Positions 28,104 to 32,055 are shown, counted from the first letter of the stretch. The stretch is DNA of 64,000 nt from an uncultured bacterium (GCA_965369605.1 CBDURE010000001.1:781-64780), one strand, 5' to 3'. The notes: generated by a model from the letters alone, not told the origin. Translations and numbers: made by a program.

Positions 28104-28236
28104 TTGCCTGCCTCCAGGATAGATTTTTTTAATGCAATTCTCTTAAGAAGATGTACTGTGCATATACCATTATATAAAATTTTCCCGACATTTACGAACT
28201 TATGCACAAATTTTTAAAGAAGTCTAATCCCAGCCC

Positions 28237-28322
28237 CAGCAATAATGCGGAAAGGCAACGATTCCGCTTTTTTAAATCCACCCTAACGCCAGTATTAATG
28301 CCCAACTAAAGGGTGTCTGACT
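28237..28322. repeat. repeat family 2, copy B
   Basis: Matches 22897-22984 (ccagcaataatgcggaRaggcaac...cttttttaaatc...taacRccagtRttaatgcccaa). Confidence 0.6.
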
Positions 28323-28341
28323 TCAATGACACTTTGTAGAC

Positions 28342-29013
28342 TTGCGCTCATGGCGAGTAGATAGTACACTCTCTTTTGTGAAGAAAGAGATGATAACCTT
28401 AGCCGATAAACAAATTAGAGATGCACTTCATCGTAAGACACTCCGCAAACACCATCGTGCGCCAAATACACTTGTAGTGGATGAATTGGGATTGATGCAC
28501 GGCAAATGTCGAGCAGATATTGCTGTTATTAATGGTCATCTCTTTGGATATGAGATTAAGAGCGATGAAGACACTCTTTCAAGACTTCCTGAACAAGTCA
28601 GAGCGTATTGTGAAGTCTTCGATCGCGTAACTGTTGTAGTCGGGAAGAAGCATGTGAATTTAGTCAGAAATATTGTCCCGGATTGGTGGGGCATCACTGT
28701 TGCCCAAAGAGGGGAACGAGGTGCGGTTAATTTTGAATCTGAAAGATCTGGTCAATTCAACAAGAATCTAAATCTCTTTTCAATTGCTCAGTTGTTGTGG
28801 AAAAGCGAGGTCAGTCAAATTCTTAGCGAATTGGGTGTACCATCGAAACTGTTACGGCAAAGACGTTCTGAACTCTACCGACTGCTCGTAGAGTTGATGA
28901 AACCTAATGACTTGCACCGCAAAGTTAGGGATTGCCTAAGGAGTCGTAAAAATTGGAGATGTCATCCACAACCTTCTCAATATGATGATTCGTACCCACC
29001 CATCTCCAAGTAG
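28342..29013 (+). CDS. PD-(D/E)xK nuclease-fold protein (sce7726/MmcB-like family)
   Basis: The motif block RADIAVINGHLFGYEIKSDEDT fits the D...E.K catalytic core of the PD-(D/E)xK fold, and the size is right for this family. The gene is convergent with the beta-protein gene and overlaps it by ~89 bp. Confidence 0.55.
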   Translation: MRSWRVDSTLSFVKKEMITLADKQIRDALHRKTLRKHHRAPNTLVVDELGLMHGKCRADIAVINGHLFGYEIKSDEDTLSRLPEQVRAYCEVFDRVTVVVGKKHVNLVRNIVPDWWGITVAQRGERGAVNFESERSGQFNKNLNLFSIAQLLWKSEVSQILSELGVPSKLLRQRRSELYRLLVELMKPNDLHRKVRDCLRSRKNWRCHPQPSQYDDSYPPISK

Positions 29014-30049
29014 TTAGATTTCCTGTGCTTTCTTGCCCACTTCCGCACTCAGCAATATAATTATCACCGCAGGAGAAATCTTCACCAGAATAATGTGGTG
29101 ATTTTGTGACAATCTGGCAAAGATCCCTAAATTGCTTGTAACCATTTTTGCGGACATTTGTACCTTTTACAATTAGCCAAAAATCTTGTGTTGTATACCT
29201 GATTGTTGCAGAAGGTGTTAGGAATCGCATATCACGCTGGATAACTTTTGGATGATTTATTCCATAGTCACCAAAAGTAGGTAATCTGCCGTTATCAGCA
29301 GTTAAGATTTCAATAATGCGTTTATACAATAGCCATTCAAATCTATTCTTAAGAGTTTGGCCCTGCTTAATCCCCCCCATTGATTCAGGAAATGAAGTTC
29401 CACAGAGTATAAATGAGCGCCAGTGATGGATGTTGGGCAAATTTTTAATAATAGAAACACAAAGTTTAGCGAACCCTTCAAGTGGTTCAAAATTTGGAGA
29501 TCCAAGATCAAGCAGCAGATCGCATTGCTCAGCTTTCAAGTCGTTCATTCCAAGAATCTTTTTAATAAATTTTGTTAACTCAGGTTTGGCTGATTCCTCG
29601 ATGTTAATACGAAAGCATAATCCGTTATTATCTTTAGAAGTGATTGTTTTAATTTGTGACATGAATGCTTTATCACTGTTAGGCCTGATTACTGGTGTTG
29701 CCTTGCATTTATTTTTTCTTAATTCATCGAAGATAAACTTCAGAGGGTGGCGATTACGAGATAATCGCACATCTTGGCCAAGGAGTGAGATATCTAGAAA
29801 ACAAGGCTTAGCACCCCATTTTTCTATTATCCTCTTCGCAAATGGTTTAAGATGCTCATCGATAGTTTTACTAGGTTCTCGTGTCTCGAAATCAAATCCT
29901 ATCTCGGGCACTTCTATCAATGGAGTAATAGAAGCTTTGGCTTCTTCTGACAAGCGCAGTACAGCTTGATACTCTCCTTGTTTCCATCGAAGACATGGAA
30001 CGTAATGTTTATGGTCAAATTCCAATTTTTTACCTCCGTTTCTATCCAA
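28925..30049 (-). CDS. 'beta protein' family protein (sce7725-like), partner of the PD-(D/E)xK gene
   Basis: The N-terminal HYVPCLRWKQGEYQAVLRL matches the YVP.LK.K.GE..AL signature I associate with the beta-protein family (PF14350). Its start overlaps the upstream XRE-ImmA gene by 8 nt, suggesting an operon. Confidence 0.5.
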   Translation of the reverse strand: MDRNGGKKLEFDHKHYVPCLRWKQGEYQAVLRLSEEAKASITPLIEVPEIGFDFETREPSKTIDEHLKPFAKRIIEKWGAKPCFLDISLLGQDVRLSRNRHPLKFIFDELRKNKCKATPVIRPNSDKAFMSQIKTITSKDNNGLCFRINIEESAKPELTKFIKKILGMNDLKAEQCDLLLDLGSPNFEPLEGFAKLCVSIIKNLPNIHHWRSFILCGTSFPESMGGIKQGQTLKNRFEWLLYKRIIEILTADNGRLPTFGDYGINHPKVIQRDMRFLTPSATIRYTTQDFWLIVKGTNVRKNGYKQFRDLCQIVTKSPHYSGEDFSCGDNYIAECGSGQESTGNLTTWRWVGTNHHIEKVVDDISNFYDSLGNP

Positions 30050-31328
30050 ATCTTATATTATGGAAGTGTTTCCTTACTTGCCCCTGCCCGATCAAATTAC
30101 CAAAAATTATGTAATTATTTGATTCATATCTTATGCGACCTGCAATTATAGCCCGATGGATCTTGAGTTTTTCAGCATCTGAAGCAATCGATTCATCGTT
30201 TTGAACATATCGCGACAATGTCATCTCCCATTCATCCTCAGCAATTAAAGCTTCCAGAGCTAACTTATCTGCCTCTCGTTCAAATTCATCTGCTTCAGCA
30301 TCGAAATCATCAAAAATTGATACAAGGCCTTCAACTCGAAGGTGTTTTTTTATATGAATTAACTCATGGAACAAAACGAACCAGAAGTTATCCAGACGAT
30401 CATATCTGAGCGTCATTCCTATAATCGGTTTTCCACCATAAATAAAAGCTGCTCCGTCAAGATATGTTTTGCGAAGATGTGGTTCTATAATTAGCGTAAT
30501 CCCTACTTCCGCTAAACGTTCATATGCACGTATTGGGCCATTCTCATGCCGACTTTCTTGCACCAATTCCCTAAGCCAGTTTTCATTAAGATAAGCTCTA
30601 TCATAAGTACTAACCGCTGTCGCTTCATTTGCAAGATGTAAAATTCTACACTCCCATGCTCGCAGAGAATACAGATCTATGCCTGAACCCAATCGCATGC
30701 TCCTTCTTAGTCGAGAAGTGGCAGGTTTTTGTATTACACTCGTAACATAAGCCTCAGCCAGAAAACTTGCCTGCTCTTTTACATCTTTAAGAGATCCGGT
30801 AAAATCCTCAAACCAACCACGGCGATACATTTCTGCAACTGGGAAGCGGTGCCAATCAATCTCTACTGACTTTGCTGGATGTTTTCCCTTAGATACTTGT
30901 TTAAATTCAGCCACCTCGCTGATATTCAACTGTAATGCATCAGCAACTTCAGCCAAACGCTGGAGACTTGTCGAAGCATACATTTCGGATTCGTAGCGCT
31001 GGATCTGTTGCTCTTTGAGCTTGAGTTGCTTCGCAAGCTGGCCTTGTGTGAGTCCCCGTACTATTCTTGCTTGAACCAGAATGCGGGGAAGTTCATCGAG
31101 AGATTTAGCTGTCAGAATGCTGATCATTCCTGACTTCAAGCTTTCATATTCGCTGAGTTGATCTGACAGAACTTCAACCTCGCTCTTCAGCGCATCAAGC
31201 TCTGCCTTGGCGAGAATTGTAGAGCCAGTTCGCTTTGTTACTGCCTTAATATCGTATGTTCGTACAACCTCCGACAGATTAGCCAGCTGCTTACGAGTTA
31301 TTTTGTATTGCCGTTCATTGGTTATCAT
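30042..31328 (-). CDS. XRE-family HTH transcriptional regulator fused to ImmA/IrrE-family zinc metallopeptidase domain
   Basis: An HTH_XRE-like segment (RGLTQGQLAKQLKLKEQQIQRYE) in the N-terminal half, and a HExxH motif (FHELIHIKKH) in the C-terminal half, as in COG2856/ImmA. Confidence 0.7.
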   Translation of the reverse strand: MITNERQYKITRKQLANLSEVVRTYDIKAVTKRTGSTILAKAELDALKSEVEVLSDQLSEYESLKSGMISILTAKSLDELPRILVQARIVRGLTQGQLAKQLKLKEQQIQRYESEMYASTSLQRLAEVADALQLNISEVAEFKQVSKGKHPAKSVEIDWHRFPVAEMYRRGWFEDFTGSLKDVKEQASFLAEAYVTSVIQKPATSRLRRSMRLGSGIDLYSLRAWECRILHLANEATAVSTYDRAYLNENWLRELVQESRHENGPIRAYERLAEVGITLIIEPHLRKTYLDGAAFIYGGKPIIGMTLRYDRLDNFWFVLFHELIHIKKHLRVEGLVSIFDDFDAEADEFEREADKLALEALIAEDEWEMTLSRYVQNDESIASDAEKLKIHRAIIAGRIRYESNNYIIFGNLIGQGQVRKHFHNIRFG

Positions 31329-31352
31329 TTTGTATCTCGCTCCAAAATTCTT

Positions 31353-31865
31353 TTACAAAAGTTGGATACAGATAATCCCTTTTATCTTTCCCGTGTCCTT
31401 GTCTGTTTGAAAGTATTCTACAAAAGTGCGTGTGCTATCTGCATACGCAGTTGACGGGAAAAATTCACCTCCAAACATCTCTTTCTGTTTTTTTCGCTTA
31501 TTATTAAAATCCAATAACACTGGATTTAATTTTCTAGCATCAACCCCAATTGGGTCCCAGCATGCATCAAAATCGCCGGGGATGGATTTGCTGGTGGTGA
31601 AGCTCCCATTCAGGTAAACAGTTCGACATCCAGCTCTTTTCAACGAATTGACTCCCTTTTTGAAACCTTCAAAAAGCTGCTTTCGTTTTTGGTTGTAAGC
31701 GAAGCTTTTCTCAATCTCCTCTAAAGTGCTATCGTGTACACCCTCCGGAAGGACATTCCAGATACTCTTGATGTCAATAAGCTCTGGTATCATAACACAA
31801 CAATAATGTTTTGTTAGGGGAAAGTCAAGTTCGAAATGTAAATGTACTCGGTGCTTTTTACACAA
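31353..31865 (-). CDS. minimal nucleotidyltransferase (Pol-beta superfamily)-like protein. The true start is probably at the internal Met (~31793).
   Basis: LNGSFTTSKSIPGDFDACWD gives GS-x9-DxD, the minimal nucleotidyltransferase signature. No other recognisable domain. Confidence 0.45.
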   Translation of the reverse strand: MCKKHRVHLHFELDFPLTKHYCCVMIPELIDIKSIWNVLPEGVHDSTLEEIEKSFAYNQKRKQLFEGFKKGVNSLKRAGCRTVYLNGSFTTSKSIPGDFDACWDPIGVDARKLNPVLLDFNNKRKKQKEMFGGEFFPSTAYADSTRTFVEYFQTDKDTGKIKGIICIQLL

Positions 31866-31872
31866 TATTATC

Positions 31873-32055
31873 TGGTTAAAGGGGCCAGGTCATTTTATCG
31901 ATAAAGGAGACAACACCCTTTGATGCCACTGCTTATACATGCTTTCGCAGTCGACCTCGTTTACGTTTAAAAAAACAAAACCCGGAGCGACCTAAGCGCC
32001 CCGGGTGATTTTATCTTCTACCTTATACTACCAACACCCCTACGGCCAAAGGCCG
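31873..32055. repeat. repeat family 1, copy B (overlaps the 3' end and terminator of gdh 32040c)
   Basis: Aligns with 25198-25395, including the last codons and stop of the upstream gene and the terminator hairpin cccggggcg..cgctccggg + T-tract. Confidence 0.6.

Follow-up and report, generated by a model that had tools for sequence, protein, structure and literature searches.

What do four genes have in common that stand together between imperfect repeats, and how did they come to be there? The question is raised by positions 28104-32055 of a 64,000-nucleotide (nt) stretch of DNA from an uncultured bacterium (GCA_965369605.1 CBDURE010000001.1:781-64780; the whole stretch is hereafter referred to as the window). 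A first-pass annotation of the window had described these positions as an accessory islet carrying a plausible defence module. Here we report that positions 28337-31901 quite likely constitute a self-contained four-gene anti-phage cassette of the beta/cII family, which is part of the cargo of an integrase-less region between a convergent pair of core genes, a glycosyltransferase gene and gdh (glutamate dehydrogenase), and that the repeats are probably traces of exchange. Homology at the family level to the PD-lambda-2 and gop-beta-cII systems is almost certain on the evidence of profile matches, and an anti-phage function resembling abortive infection is fairly probable.

Two members of the beta/cII family have been validated as anti-phage systems. 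PD-lambda-2, for which the published data concern Escherichia coli alone, is a three-gene abortive-infection system: protein A is HigB-like; protein B, an Xre-peptidase, is toxic when expressed by itself, and A rescues the cell from it; protein C is P4 beta-like and needed for defence (Vassallo et al. 2022; PMC9519451). The gop-beta-cII system of P4 (Ghisotti 1990, as cited in PMC9122126) provides protection against lambda and P1 (Rousset et al. 2022; PMC9122126), and is triggered by a phage accessory gene, upon which the cell is killed (bioRxiv 10.1101/2023.04.06.535777). The locus described here, together with its relatives, appears to reveal the conserved core of this family.

The four proteins of the module

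The module and its genes are as follows.

28337-31901, 3.57 kb: four-gene module with its own promoters
28390-29013, plus strand: sce7726/cII gene (P4 cII family), with a PD-(D/E)xK-like motif, D43...E55-I-K57
28925-30025, minus strand: beta gene (P4 beta-like, PD-Lambda-2_C type), 366 residues, with a TTG start behind a GGAGG site
30042-31328, minus strand: XRE-M78 gene, encoding an XRE helix-turn-helix (HTH) and an ImmA/IrrE (M78) metallopeptidase (PD-Lambda-2_B type), 428 residues, with HELIHxxxH at residues 321-329
31353-31793, minus strand: DUF6932 gene, 146 residues, with G63-S64...D74-x-D76 (GS-x9-DxD), in the position of PD-lambda-2 A or gop

The starts of the cII and DUF6932 genes were refined from the listed open reading frame (ORF) starts at 28342 and 31865, respectively. 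The beta protein matches the Pfam family Beta_protein (E = 1e-85) and the PADLOC model PD-Lambda-2_C (E = 1e-56), and aligns with P4 beta at 23% identity (E = 2e-8, BLASTP); its start lies 17 nt after the XRE-M78 stop codon. It is predicted to fold as a TIM barrel, and its K15, E18, D45, H58, D173, D253, D265 and R267 residues are invariant. A resemblance of beta to TGT/DpdA proved no better than that to generic TIM barrels and was kept as a lead only. The cII protein matches the sce7726 family model NF033832 (E = 1e-52) and the PADLOC model 'cll' (E = 5e-31), and is 27% identical to P4 cII (E = 1e-18, BLASTP), with D43, E55 and K57 invariant in eight sequences, including P4 cII itself.

The XRE-M78 protein matches PADLOC PD-Lambda-2_B over residues 146-424 (E = 1e-88), leaving its N-terminal ~145 residues outside the B model. 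It contains an HTH_3 domain (E = 4e-7) and a Peptidase_M78 match (E = 2e-4) that, at 21.6 bits, is just below the 22-bit Pfam cut-off, and its H321, E322, H325 and H329 residues are invariant. The B family is large, with 2882 proteins at E ≤ 1e-20. The first protein of the operon matches DUF6932 (E = 3e-33), a family of 1507 representative clusters, as well as the PADLOC candidate model PDC-M63A, and is predicted to adopt a minimal-nucleotidyltransferase-like fold. Its gene has no match to PD-Lambda-2_A or HigB, even at E ≤ 10, and the PADLOC 'gop' model, which recognises P4 Gop (E = 5e-70), has no match among the proteins of the window. None of the four module proteins gave a match to a HEPN domain. 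PDB sequence-profile searches with DUF6932 were uninformative, and a literature search found no paper mentioning this family.

These results uphold the first-pass reading of the four genes between the repeats as encoding a D...EIK protein, a 'beta protein'-like partner, an XRE-HTH fused to an HExxH metallopeptidase, and a minimal nucleotidyltransferase with GS-x9-DxD, the convergent pair overlapping by 89 nt (28925-29013). Moreover, the guess of a defence function is strengthened, as the PADLOC models PD-Lambda-2_B and PD-Lambda-2_C recognise two of the proteins, and the models for P4 beta and cII likewise recognise two.

Promoter and operator

Directly upstream of the DUF6932 gene we identified the following elements.

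31828-31794, minus strand: predicted promoter/operator, with TTGACT (31828-31823), a 17-nt spacer and TATTGT (31805-31800); the DUF6932 ATG is at 31793
31815-31794, minus strand: inverted repeat AACAAAACA-TTAT-TGTTGTGTT, which overlaps the -10 element and abuts the ATG

The same layout is present upstream of the DUF6932 start in six loci from distant taxa and phyla (the window, L093, L094, L096, L086 and L088), each with TTGACT or TTGCCx, a spacer of ~17 nt, TATTGT or TATTAT, and an inverted repeat of the ACAACA-TTAT-TGTTGT type abutting the ATG. This arrangement, in which the -35 and -10 elements are followed by an inverted repeat that ends at the start codon, argues for a leaderless operon probably autoregulated by the HTH protein. 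In one of these loci (L086, Sinorhizobium terangae pCB3126_2, 3606-4004), the RefSeq start of DUF6932 is apparently placed too far downstream, and the conserved MIPALV start lies upstream of it, directly behind the operator palindrome.

The module in other contexts

The limits of the module were set by DNA homology to two metagenomic contigs, L093 (2079-5644, 79% identity) and L092 (3-3148, 78%), and run from the putative -35 element of the cII promoter to a point ~100 nt beyond the DUF6932 promoter on its upstream side. The neighbours of the module in L093 are an ortholog of the window lipoprotein gene (86% DNA identity), which it directly follows, and HicAB, which it precedes; in L092, GyrI-like and Dtd genes come after it. 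The L094/L095 copy has an OmpA-family gene on one side and a transglutaminase gene on the other, and a 38-nt direct repeat encloses it. The distal copy of this repeat encodes the identical OmpA-family C-terminus AKNRRVELVEM* with only synonymous changes.

Wherever the contig spans the whole set, namely in L086, L088, L093, L094/L095 and L096, the order DUF6932, XRE-M78, beta and convergent cII is complete; the L092 contig begins within DUF6932 and contains XRE-M78, beta and cII. L086 and L088 are Sinorhizobium and Rhizobium plasmids, and L092, L093, L094/L095 and L096 are metagenomic contigs. Across the conserved contexts, the convergent 3' ends of beta and cII overlap by 47-89 nt. The recurrence of the gene order, the 3' overlap and the promoter/operator in Rhizobiaceae plasmids and metagenomic contigs indicates that the module is, as far as sequence comparison goes, a conserved variant with DUF6932 in place of a HigB-like or Gop partner.

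In Acinetobacter NDM-1 plasmids, the module is apparently split: in A. pittii pNDM-AP_882 (L087), a match at 3525-7415 is accompanied by a second ~10 kb downstream (record 78711-79595), such that DUF6932 and ImmA/IrrE genes are followed by an IS30-family transposase gene and blaNDM-1, and beta residues 65-363 and sce7726 lie ~10 kb off. This split suggests the insertion of a resistance transposon into the beta gene.

A variable region between two core genes

To the left and right of the module, the window holds the following genes.

22089-22886: glycosyltransferase gene, the 3' flank of which forms the left border of the variable region
23034-24917, minus strand: TPR-repeat protein gene, 627 residues, GC content ~36%, a separate cargo of the same variable region
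25383-28103, minus strand: lipoprotein gene, 906 residues, DUF5122 beta-propeller repeats, separating the two cargo segments
32040-33305, minus strand: gdh, the core gene at the right border of the variable region

The closest gdh relatives are four contigs from three samples (L082, L083, L098 and L099; gdh identity 92-93%), and all four are without the four module genes at the gdh site, in agreement with their proposed accessory status; the module occurs in other contexts elsewhere. DNA homology between the window and these syntenic contigs covers gdh and its terminator, ends at 31971, and restarts at the 3' flank of the glycosyltransferase gene and the glycosyltransferase pair (21627-22988), with the break on that side at 22988/22990. 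The two flanks are 88-90% identical, and nothing between them is in common: the gdh-to-glycosyltransferase interval of the relatives encodes a 1177-residue protein, a 363-residue protein, a multihaem cytochrome and two small proteins, none of which is found in the window. Thus, the whole of 22990-31970 is variable cargo, and the four genes are only part of it. The islet has a GC content of 0.36-0.46, as compared with 0.46-0.53 for the flanks. The TPR gene has the lowest GC content of the region and a weak match to PADLOC 'TPR' models (E = 4e-30); it has no homologous DNA in L082 or L083 (blastn, E ≤ 1e-5).

With conserved flanking genes, unrelated cargo in close relatives and no integrase, the site between the two core genes has the features of an integrase-less hotspot. 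Beyond gdh, L082 and L083 also lack a second segment of the window (33607-38215), so gdh has variable cargo on both sides. This segment encodes a 1020-residue protein with DUF4062, NACHT/nSTAND1 and TPR regions (35573-38635, plus strand), which looks like a STAND NTPase of the anti-phage type, and contains a gene for a 563-residue lipoprotein.

Several further searches bear on the nature of the site. There is no tRNA gene within the window, which excludes a tRNA-linked island. A gdh probe of species-representative genomes returned no more than 59% identity among the matches listed and no synteny information. In JGI metagenome contigs, a gdh-peptide pattern matched one 1.3-kb contig, and a pattern for the R1 terminator (repeat family 1, below) had no match. 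The short motif TAAAGGGGACAG was considered as a mark of cargo edges and dropped because of its weak enrichment (7 matches against 3.3 expected, a number reached in 4 of 100 shuffles).

Repeats as probable traces of exchange

Two repeat families (R1 and R2, each with copies a and b) occur in the region, all four copies being given on the plus strand.

22898-22990, plus strand: R2a, the terminator region that natively flanks the glycosyltransferase gene on its 3' side; left border
25190-25390, plus strand: R1a, consisting of the 'dist' element (25190-25271), a 39-nt spacer and terminator T' (25312-25390), which abuts the lipoprotein stop codon
28236-28327, plus strand: R2b, second copy of the glycosyltransferase 3' flank, without a plus-strand gene upstream, ending 9 nt before the module
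31890-32047, plus strand: R1b, consisting of 'dist' (31890-31967), which starts with the palindrome TTTATCGATAAA, and the native gdh terminator T (31969-32047)

Both families had been noticed in the first-pass annotation, and both are real. Family 1 comprises two blocks, 25312-25390 versus 31969-32047 (79 nt, 86% identity) and 25207-25271 versus 31903-31967 (65 nt, 78%), with a 39-nt insert between them in copy a and 24 extra nt in copy b. Family 2 is a single block, 22898-22983 versus 28236-28321 (87 nt, 83%). The core pattern of each family occurs exactly twice in the window, as compared with zero expected from shuffles. Rfam gave no match at the repeats. Three details of that annotation needed revision. 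The islet does have repeat copies on both sides, but the plus-strand order (the two glycosyltransferase genes, R2a, the TPR gene, R1a, the lipoprotein gene, R2b, the four genes, R1b, gdh) interleaves the families, and the islet therefore sits between copies of two different families rather than within one bracketing pair. Copy b of family 1 had been drawn from 31873; however, bases 31873-31901 belong to the upstream region of the module itself, which is common to L093. Finally, family 1 does hold a minus-strand intrinsic terminator with a 10-bp stem behind both the lipoprotein gene and gdh (25349-25323 and 32006-31980), but the 'final codons' said to be included in it amount to two, CCG-TAG, plus one base.

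The glycosyltransferase gene natively has R2 as its 3' flank, and gdh natively has T, the proximal part of R1, as its terminator; both are colinear with their genes in relatives, T with gdh in L082, L083 and L084, and R2a with the glycosyltransferase gene in L083 (21627-22988 = L083 13839-12452, 90%). R2b is 89-91% identical to the R2 copies of L082 and L083. In these relatives, extra R2 copies joined to a 178-nt 3' fragment of the glycosyltransferase gene mark cargo junctions (L082 8844-9114 and 12522-12905; L083 8774-9044 and 12452-12543), L082 having one such unit more than L083. L082 also appears to contain a tandem repeat of a multihaem-cytochrome unit that L083 lacks. A copied gene 3' end thus stands beside cargo in three places, in the window (R1), in L083 (R2 with a piece of the glycosyltransferase gene) and in L094 (the end of the OmpA-family gene). 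The reading of the repeats as a recombination footprint is supported by these copies of native flanks, and the repeats and relatives together fit a gain of cargo driven by recombination.

The repeat copies diverge by 14-22%, more than the orthologous flanks do between the window and L083 (~10%). From this excess we infer that R1a and R2b were not duplicated in place but entered with DNA of a diverged relative, taken from its equivalent locus. Entry by one-sided homologous or Campbell-type recombination would yield the order R2a, R1a, R2b, R1b. This order can be obtained in one event in either of two ways, by insertion of a segment with the lipoprotein gene, R2b and the module through recombination at R1, or by insertion of a segment with the TPR gene, R1a and the lipoprotein gene through recombination at R2.

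It is hardly credible that the repeats are ordinary terminator or repetitive extragenic palindromic (REP)-like elements placed independently, and that the four genes are a stable part of the lineage core. Both families do contain terminator hairpins, other dispersed intergenic repeats exist in this genome, and 'dist' also occurs elsewhere in relatives. However, the repeats reach well beyond the hairpins (blocks of 79-87 nt and 65 nt) and extend into stop codons, the 64-kb window has no more than two copies of each, and the module is missing from the four closest-relative contigs and present elsewhere in other contexts. The synteny of the relatives and the other module contexts already largely refute this explanation.

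We also weighed whether the islet might be what is left of an integrative element (for example, a satellite of the P4 type or a cis-mobilisable element), with the flanking repeats as attL and attR. In P4, beta and cII adjoin int and attP; the 38-nt direct repeat of L094/L095 includes a gene 3' end, as many att sites do; and in L088 a site-specific integrase gene is found ~1.4 kb from the module. By contrast, the module in the window is flanked by two different repeats, R2b and R1b, and a direct repeat of the same sequence brackets it only in L094/L095. As the first-pass annotation had stated, no integrase is present in the islet, nor in the ten neighbouring ORFs tested, and no excisionase or phage gene was found there either. 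A scan of viral contigs with beta found no relative, and T and R2 are native core-gene flanks in relatives devoid of the module. An origin of this kind is accordingly quite unlikely.

The distal part of R1, 'dist' (~70 nt), is a separate small element. A profile built from three copies matches an independent fourth in L082/L083/L098 (E = 2e-12), and the copies are as follows.

25190-25271 and 31890-31967, window: 'dist' in R1a and R1b
5653-5730, L093: 'dist' adjoining the module at its cII side
10623-10685, minus strand, L083: 'dist' in a relative

The reverse complement of 'dist' has a conserved TATAAT...CAGCGACAT...GCTGTCC. All copies are sense-downstream of a gene 3' end, and three of the four are upstream of the next co-directional gene. 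It may serve as a promoter or insulator that can be carried from place to place, or as a site of recombination. Neither an attC-like nor any other conserved hairpin was supported (four copies, 4 invariant pairs, no covariation); with no conserved attC-type hairpin, no integrase and promoters of its own, the module does not resemble an integron gene cassette. A leftward extension of R1a into the module promoter region, seen with MAFFT, was dropped because it was not significant by blastn.

The window and L093 each have a single copy of the perfect palindrome TTTATCGATAAA (31894-31905 and 5657-5668, respectively), which lies at the junction between module and 'dist' in both, and at opposite ends of the module. 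Since the palindrome changes ends in this way, and since the insertion in L094/L095 is accompanied by a diverged copy of the last 38 nt of the target gene, the 3.57-kb module could itself be a mobile cassette without its own integrase that lands downstream of stop codons beside 'dist', in either orientation. This is distinctly improbable, and TTTATCGATAAA may simply be part of 'dist'. If the module were such a cassette, the nuclease-like cII and TIM-barrel beta proteins might serve insertion or homing besides or instead of defence.

Proposed mechanism

For the preferred reading, an anti-phage cassette gained as cargo, we propose the following mechanism, holding each step with less confidence than the anti-phage function itself. 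The operon DUF6932, XRE-M78 and beta would be transcribed from the leaderless promoter, with the HTH of XRE-M78 acting as repressor through the overlapping inverted repeat. XRE-M78 would be the switchable and potentially toxic component, by analogy with PD-lambda-2, and would be restrained by the minimal-nucleotidyltransferase-like DUF6932 product, either by binding or by nucleotidylylation as in MNT antitoxins. A phage cue would release the XRE-M78 switch, upon which the enzyme-like TIM barrel of beta and the nuclease-like product of the convergent cII gene would execute or license growth arrest or an attack on nucleic acids, thereby aborting the infection. In addition, expression of beta and cII may be linked by antisense effects where their convergent 3' ends overlap.

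The same genes could form a plain addiction (toxin-antitoxin) module that stabilises its carrier DNA and plays no anti-phage role. Both PD-lambda-2 and gop-beta-cII act like toxin-antitoxin loci, in that B or Gop is toxic and a partner neutralises it; furthermore, the module is frequent on large plasmids, and in L093 it adjoins another toxin-antitoxin pair, HicAB. We regard addiction alone as unlikely, given that both characterised relatives protect against phages, that the neighbourhood also has a STAND NTPase of the anti-phage type, and that the chromosomal copies lie in a variable region and not on an element needing stabilisation.

Several points count against the interpretation as an anti-phage cassette exchanged at this site. 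Defence and toxicity are extrapolated from homologues at 23-27% identity (P4) or from similarity at the level of hidden Markov models only (PD-lambda-2). It is position alone that points to DUF6932 as the neutraliser, because the first gene is neither HigB-like nor gop-like. The PD-(D/E)xK fold of cII is suggested by its motif alone, a PDB sequence-profile search having given no match, and the TIM-barrel prediction for beta points to no specific chemistry. At least two single-insertion histories fit the repeats equally well. Lastly, an empty site with R2 and R1 adjacent was not found among the comparison genomes, which are all metagenomic contigs.

The predicted folds and motif offer concrete targets for mutation, namely the TIM barrel of beta, the minimal nucleotidyltransferase of DUF6932 and the D...ExK of cII, and from the conserved leaderless promoter/operator follows a model of regulation that can be put to the test. 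Moreover, the locus illustrates cleanly how defence cargo can turn over where mobility genes are absent, the exchanges being recorded by terminator regions that were copied.

Other features of the window

Other repeats are present in the window. The spacer between the two glycosyltransferase genes (21995-22111) is a 28-nt inverted repeat with 75% complementarity; the sequence AAAAGGGGACAG is found both in its right arm and where R1a starts. Farther along, at 44799-44937 and 58851-58965, ~14 kb apart, are inverted REP-like repeats between genes, in two pairs (52 nt at 87% and 40 nt at 98%), with the hairpin CATTCCGG...CCGGAATG. At 1000-9289, three large tandem paralogous genes (1030, 935 and 784 residues) share a 300-nt N-terminal block of up to 96% identity (4149-4448 versus 7049-7348); they belong to an expanded lipoprotein family that includes 17917-21147, 25383-28103 and 33736-35427.

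Comparison with known systems

In common with PD-lambda-2, the module has a small first gene, then a gene for an XRE-HTH and M78 peptidase, and then a P4 beta-like gene, and the B and C models match. It differs in that its first gene is nucleotidyltransferase-like DUF6932 and not of the HigB-like toxin fold, in that the convergent cII gene is part of the module, whereas PD-lambda-2 is described as three genes, and in the N-terminal region of XRE-M78 beyond the B model. With P4 gop-beta-cII, it shares beta followed by convergent cII (sce7726), with toxin-like or regulatory genes upstream of beta in the same operon; the P4 genome record gives gop, beta and convergent cII in the same geometry, with the RefSeq products 'beta family' and 'sce7726 family'. 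Unlike P4, the module has no gop homologue but DUF6932 and XRE-M78 in its place, its beta and cII 3' ends overlap by 89 nt instead of being separated by a terminator, and it is chromosomal, integrase-less and outside any satellite. The module is, judged by its profile matches, neither canonical PD-lambda-2, because it has no HigB-like A, nor gop-beta-cII, because it has no gop; two components are held in common with each.

Two further comparisons concern single proteins. DUF6932 resembles the HEPN-MNT type VII toxin-antitoxin system (MntA/HepT) in its GS...DxD motif and nucleotidyltransferase-like predicted fold, but the HEPN partner was not found. Protease-controlled XRE repressors are known from ImmR/ImmA, DdrO/IrrE and the CBASS pair CapH/CapP. 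Like the ImmR/ImmA type, the module combines an XRE HTH with an M78 metallopeptidase and has a palindromic operator over the promoter; unlike it, the HTH and peptidase are fused in one 428-residue protein with extra N-terminal and middle domains, the counterpart of which in PD-lambda-2 is itself toxic. The Sinorhizobium homologue also has a weaker PADLOC match to capP.

Integrase-less defence hotspots between core genes are known from pangenome studies of E. coli and Pseudomonas. The present site is like them in its conserved core flanks, unrelated cargo in close relatives, absence of mobility genes and defence-type cargo, but differs in that diverged copies of the flanks are kept between the cargo segments, a direct trace of recombination.

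Other combinations of the same genes exist: HigB and ImmA/IrrE alone (L089, L090), XRE-M78 and beta alone (L091), and beta and cII alone in an E. coli phage-like plasmid and in Rhodococcus (L100, L101). From these combinations, beta and convergent cII look like a conserved core with exchangeable upstream partners, which may be Gop, HigB with XRE-peptidase, DUF6932 with XRE-peptidase, or none. Collectively, the module is best described as a widespread, so far uncharacterised variant of the beta/cII family that resides in an integrase-less hotspot.

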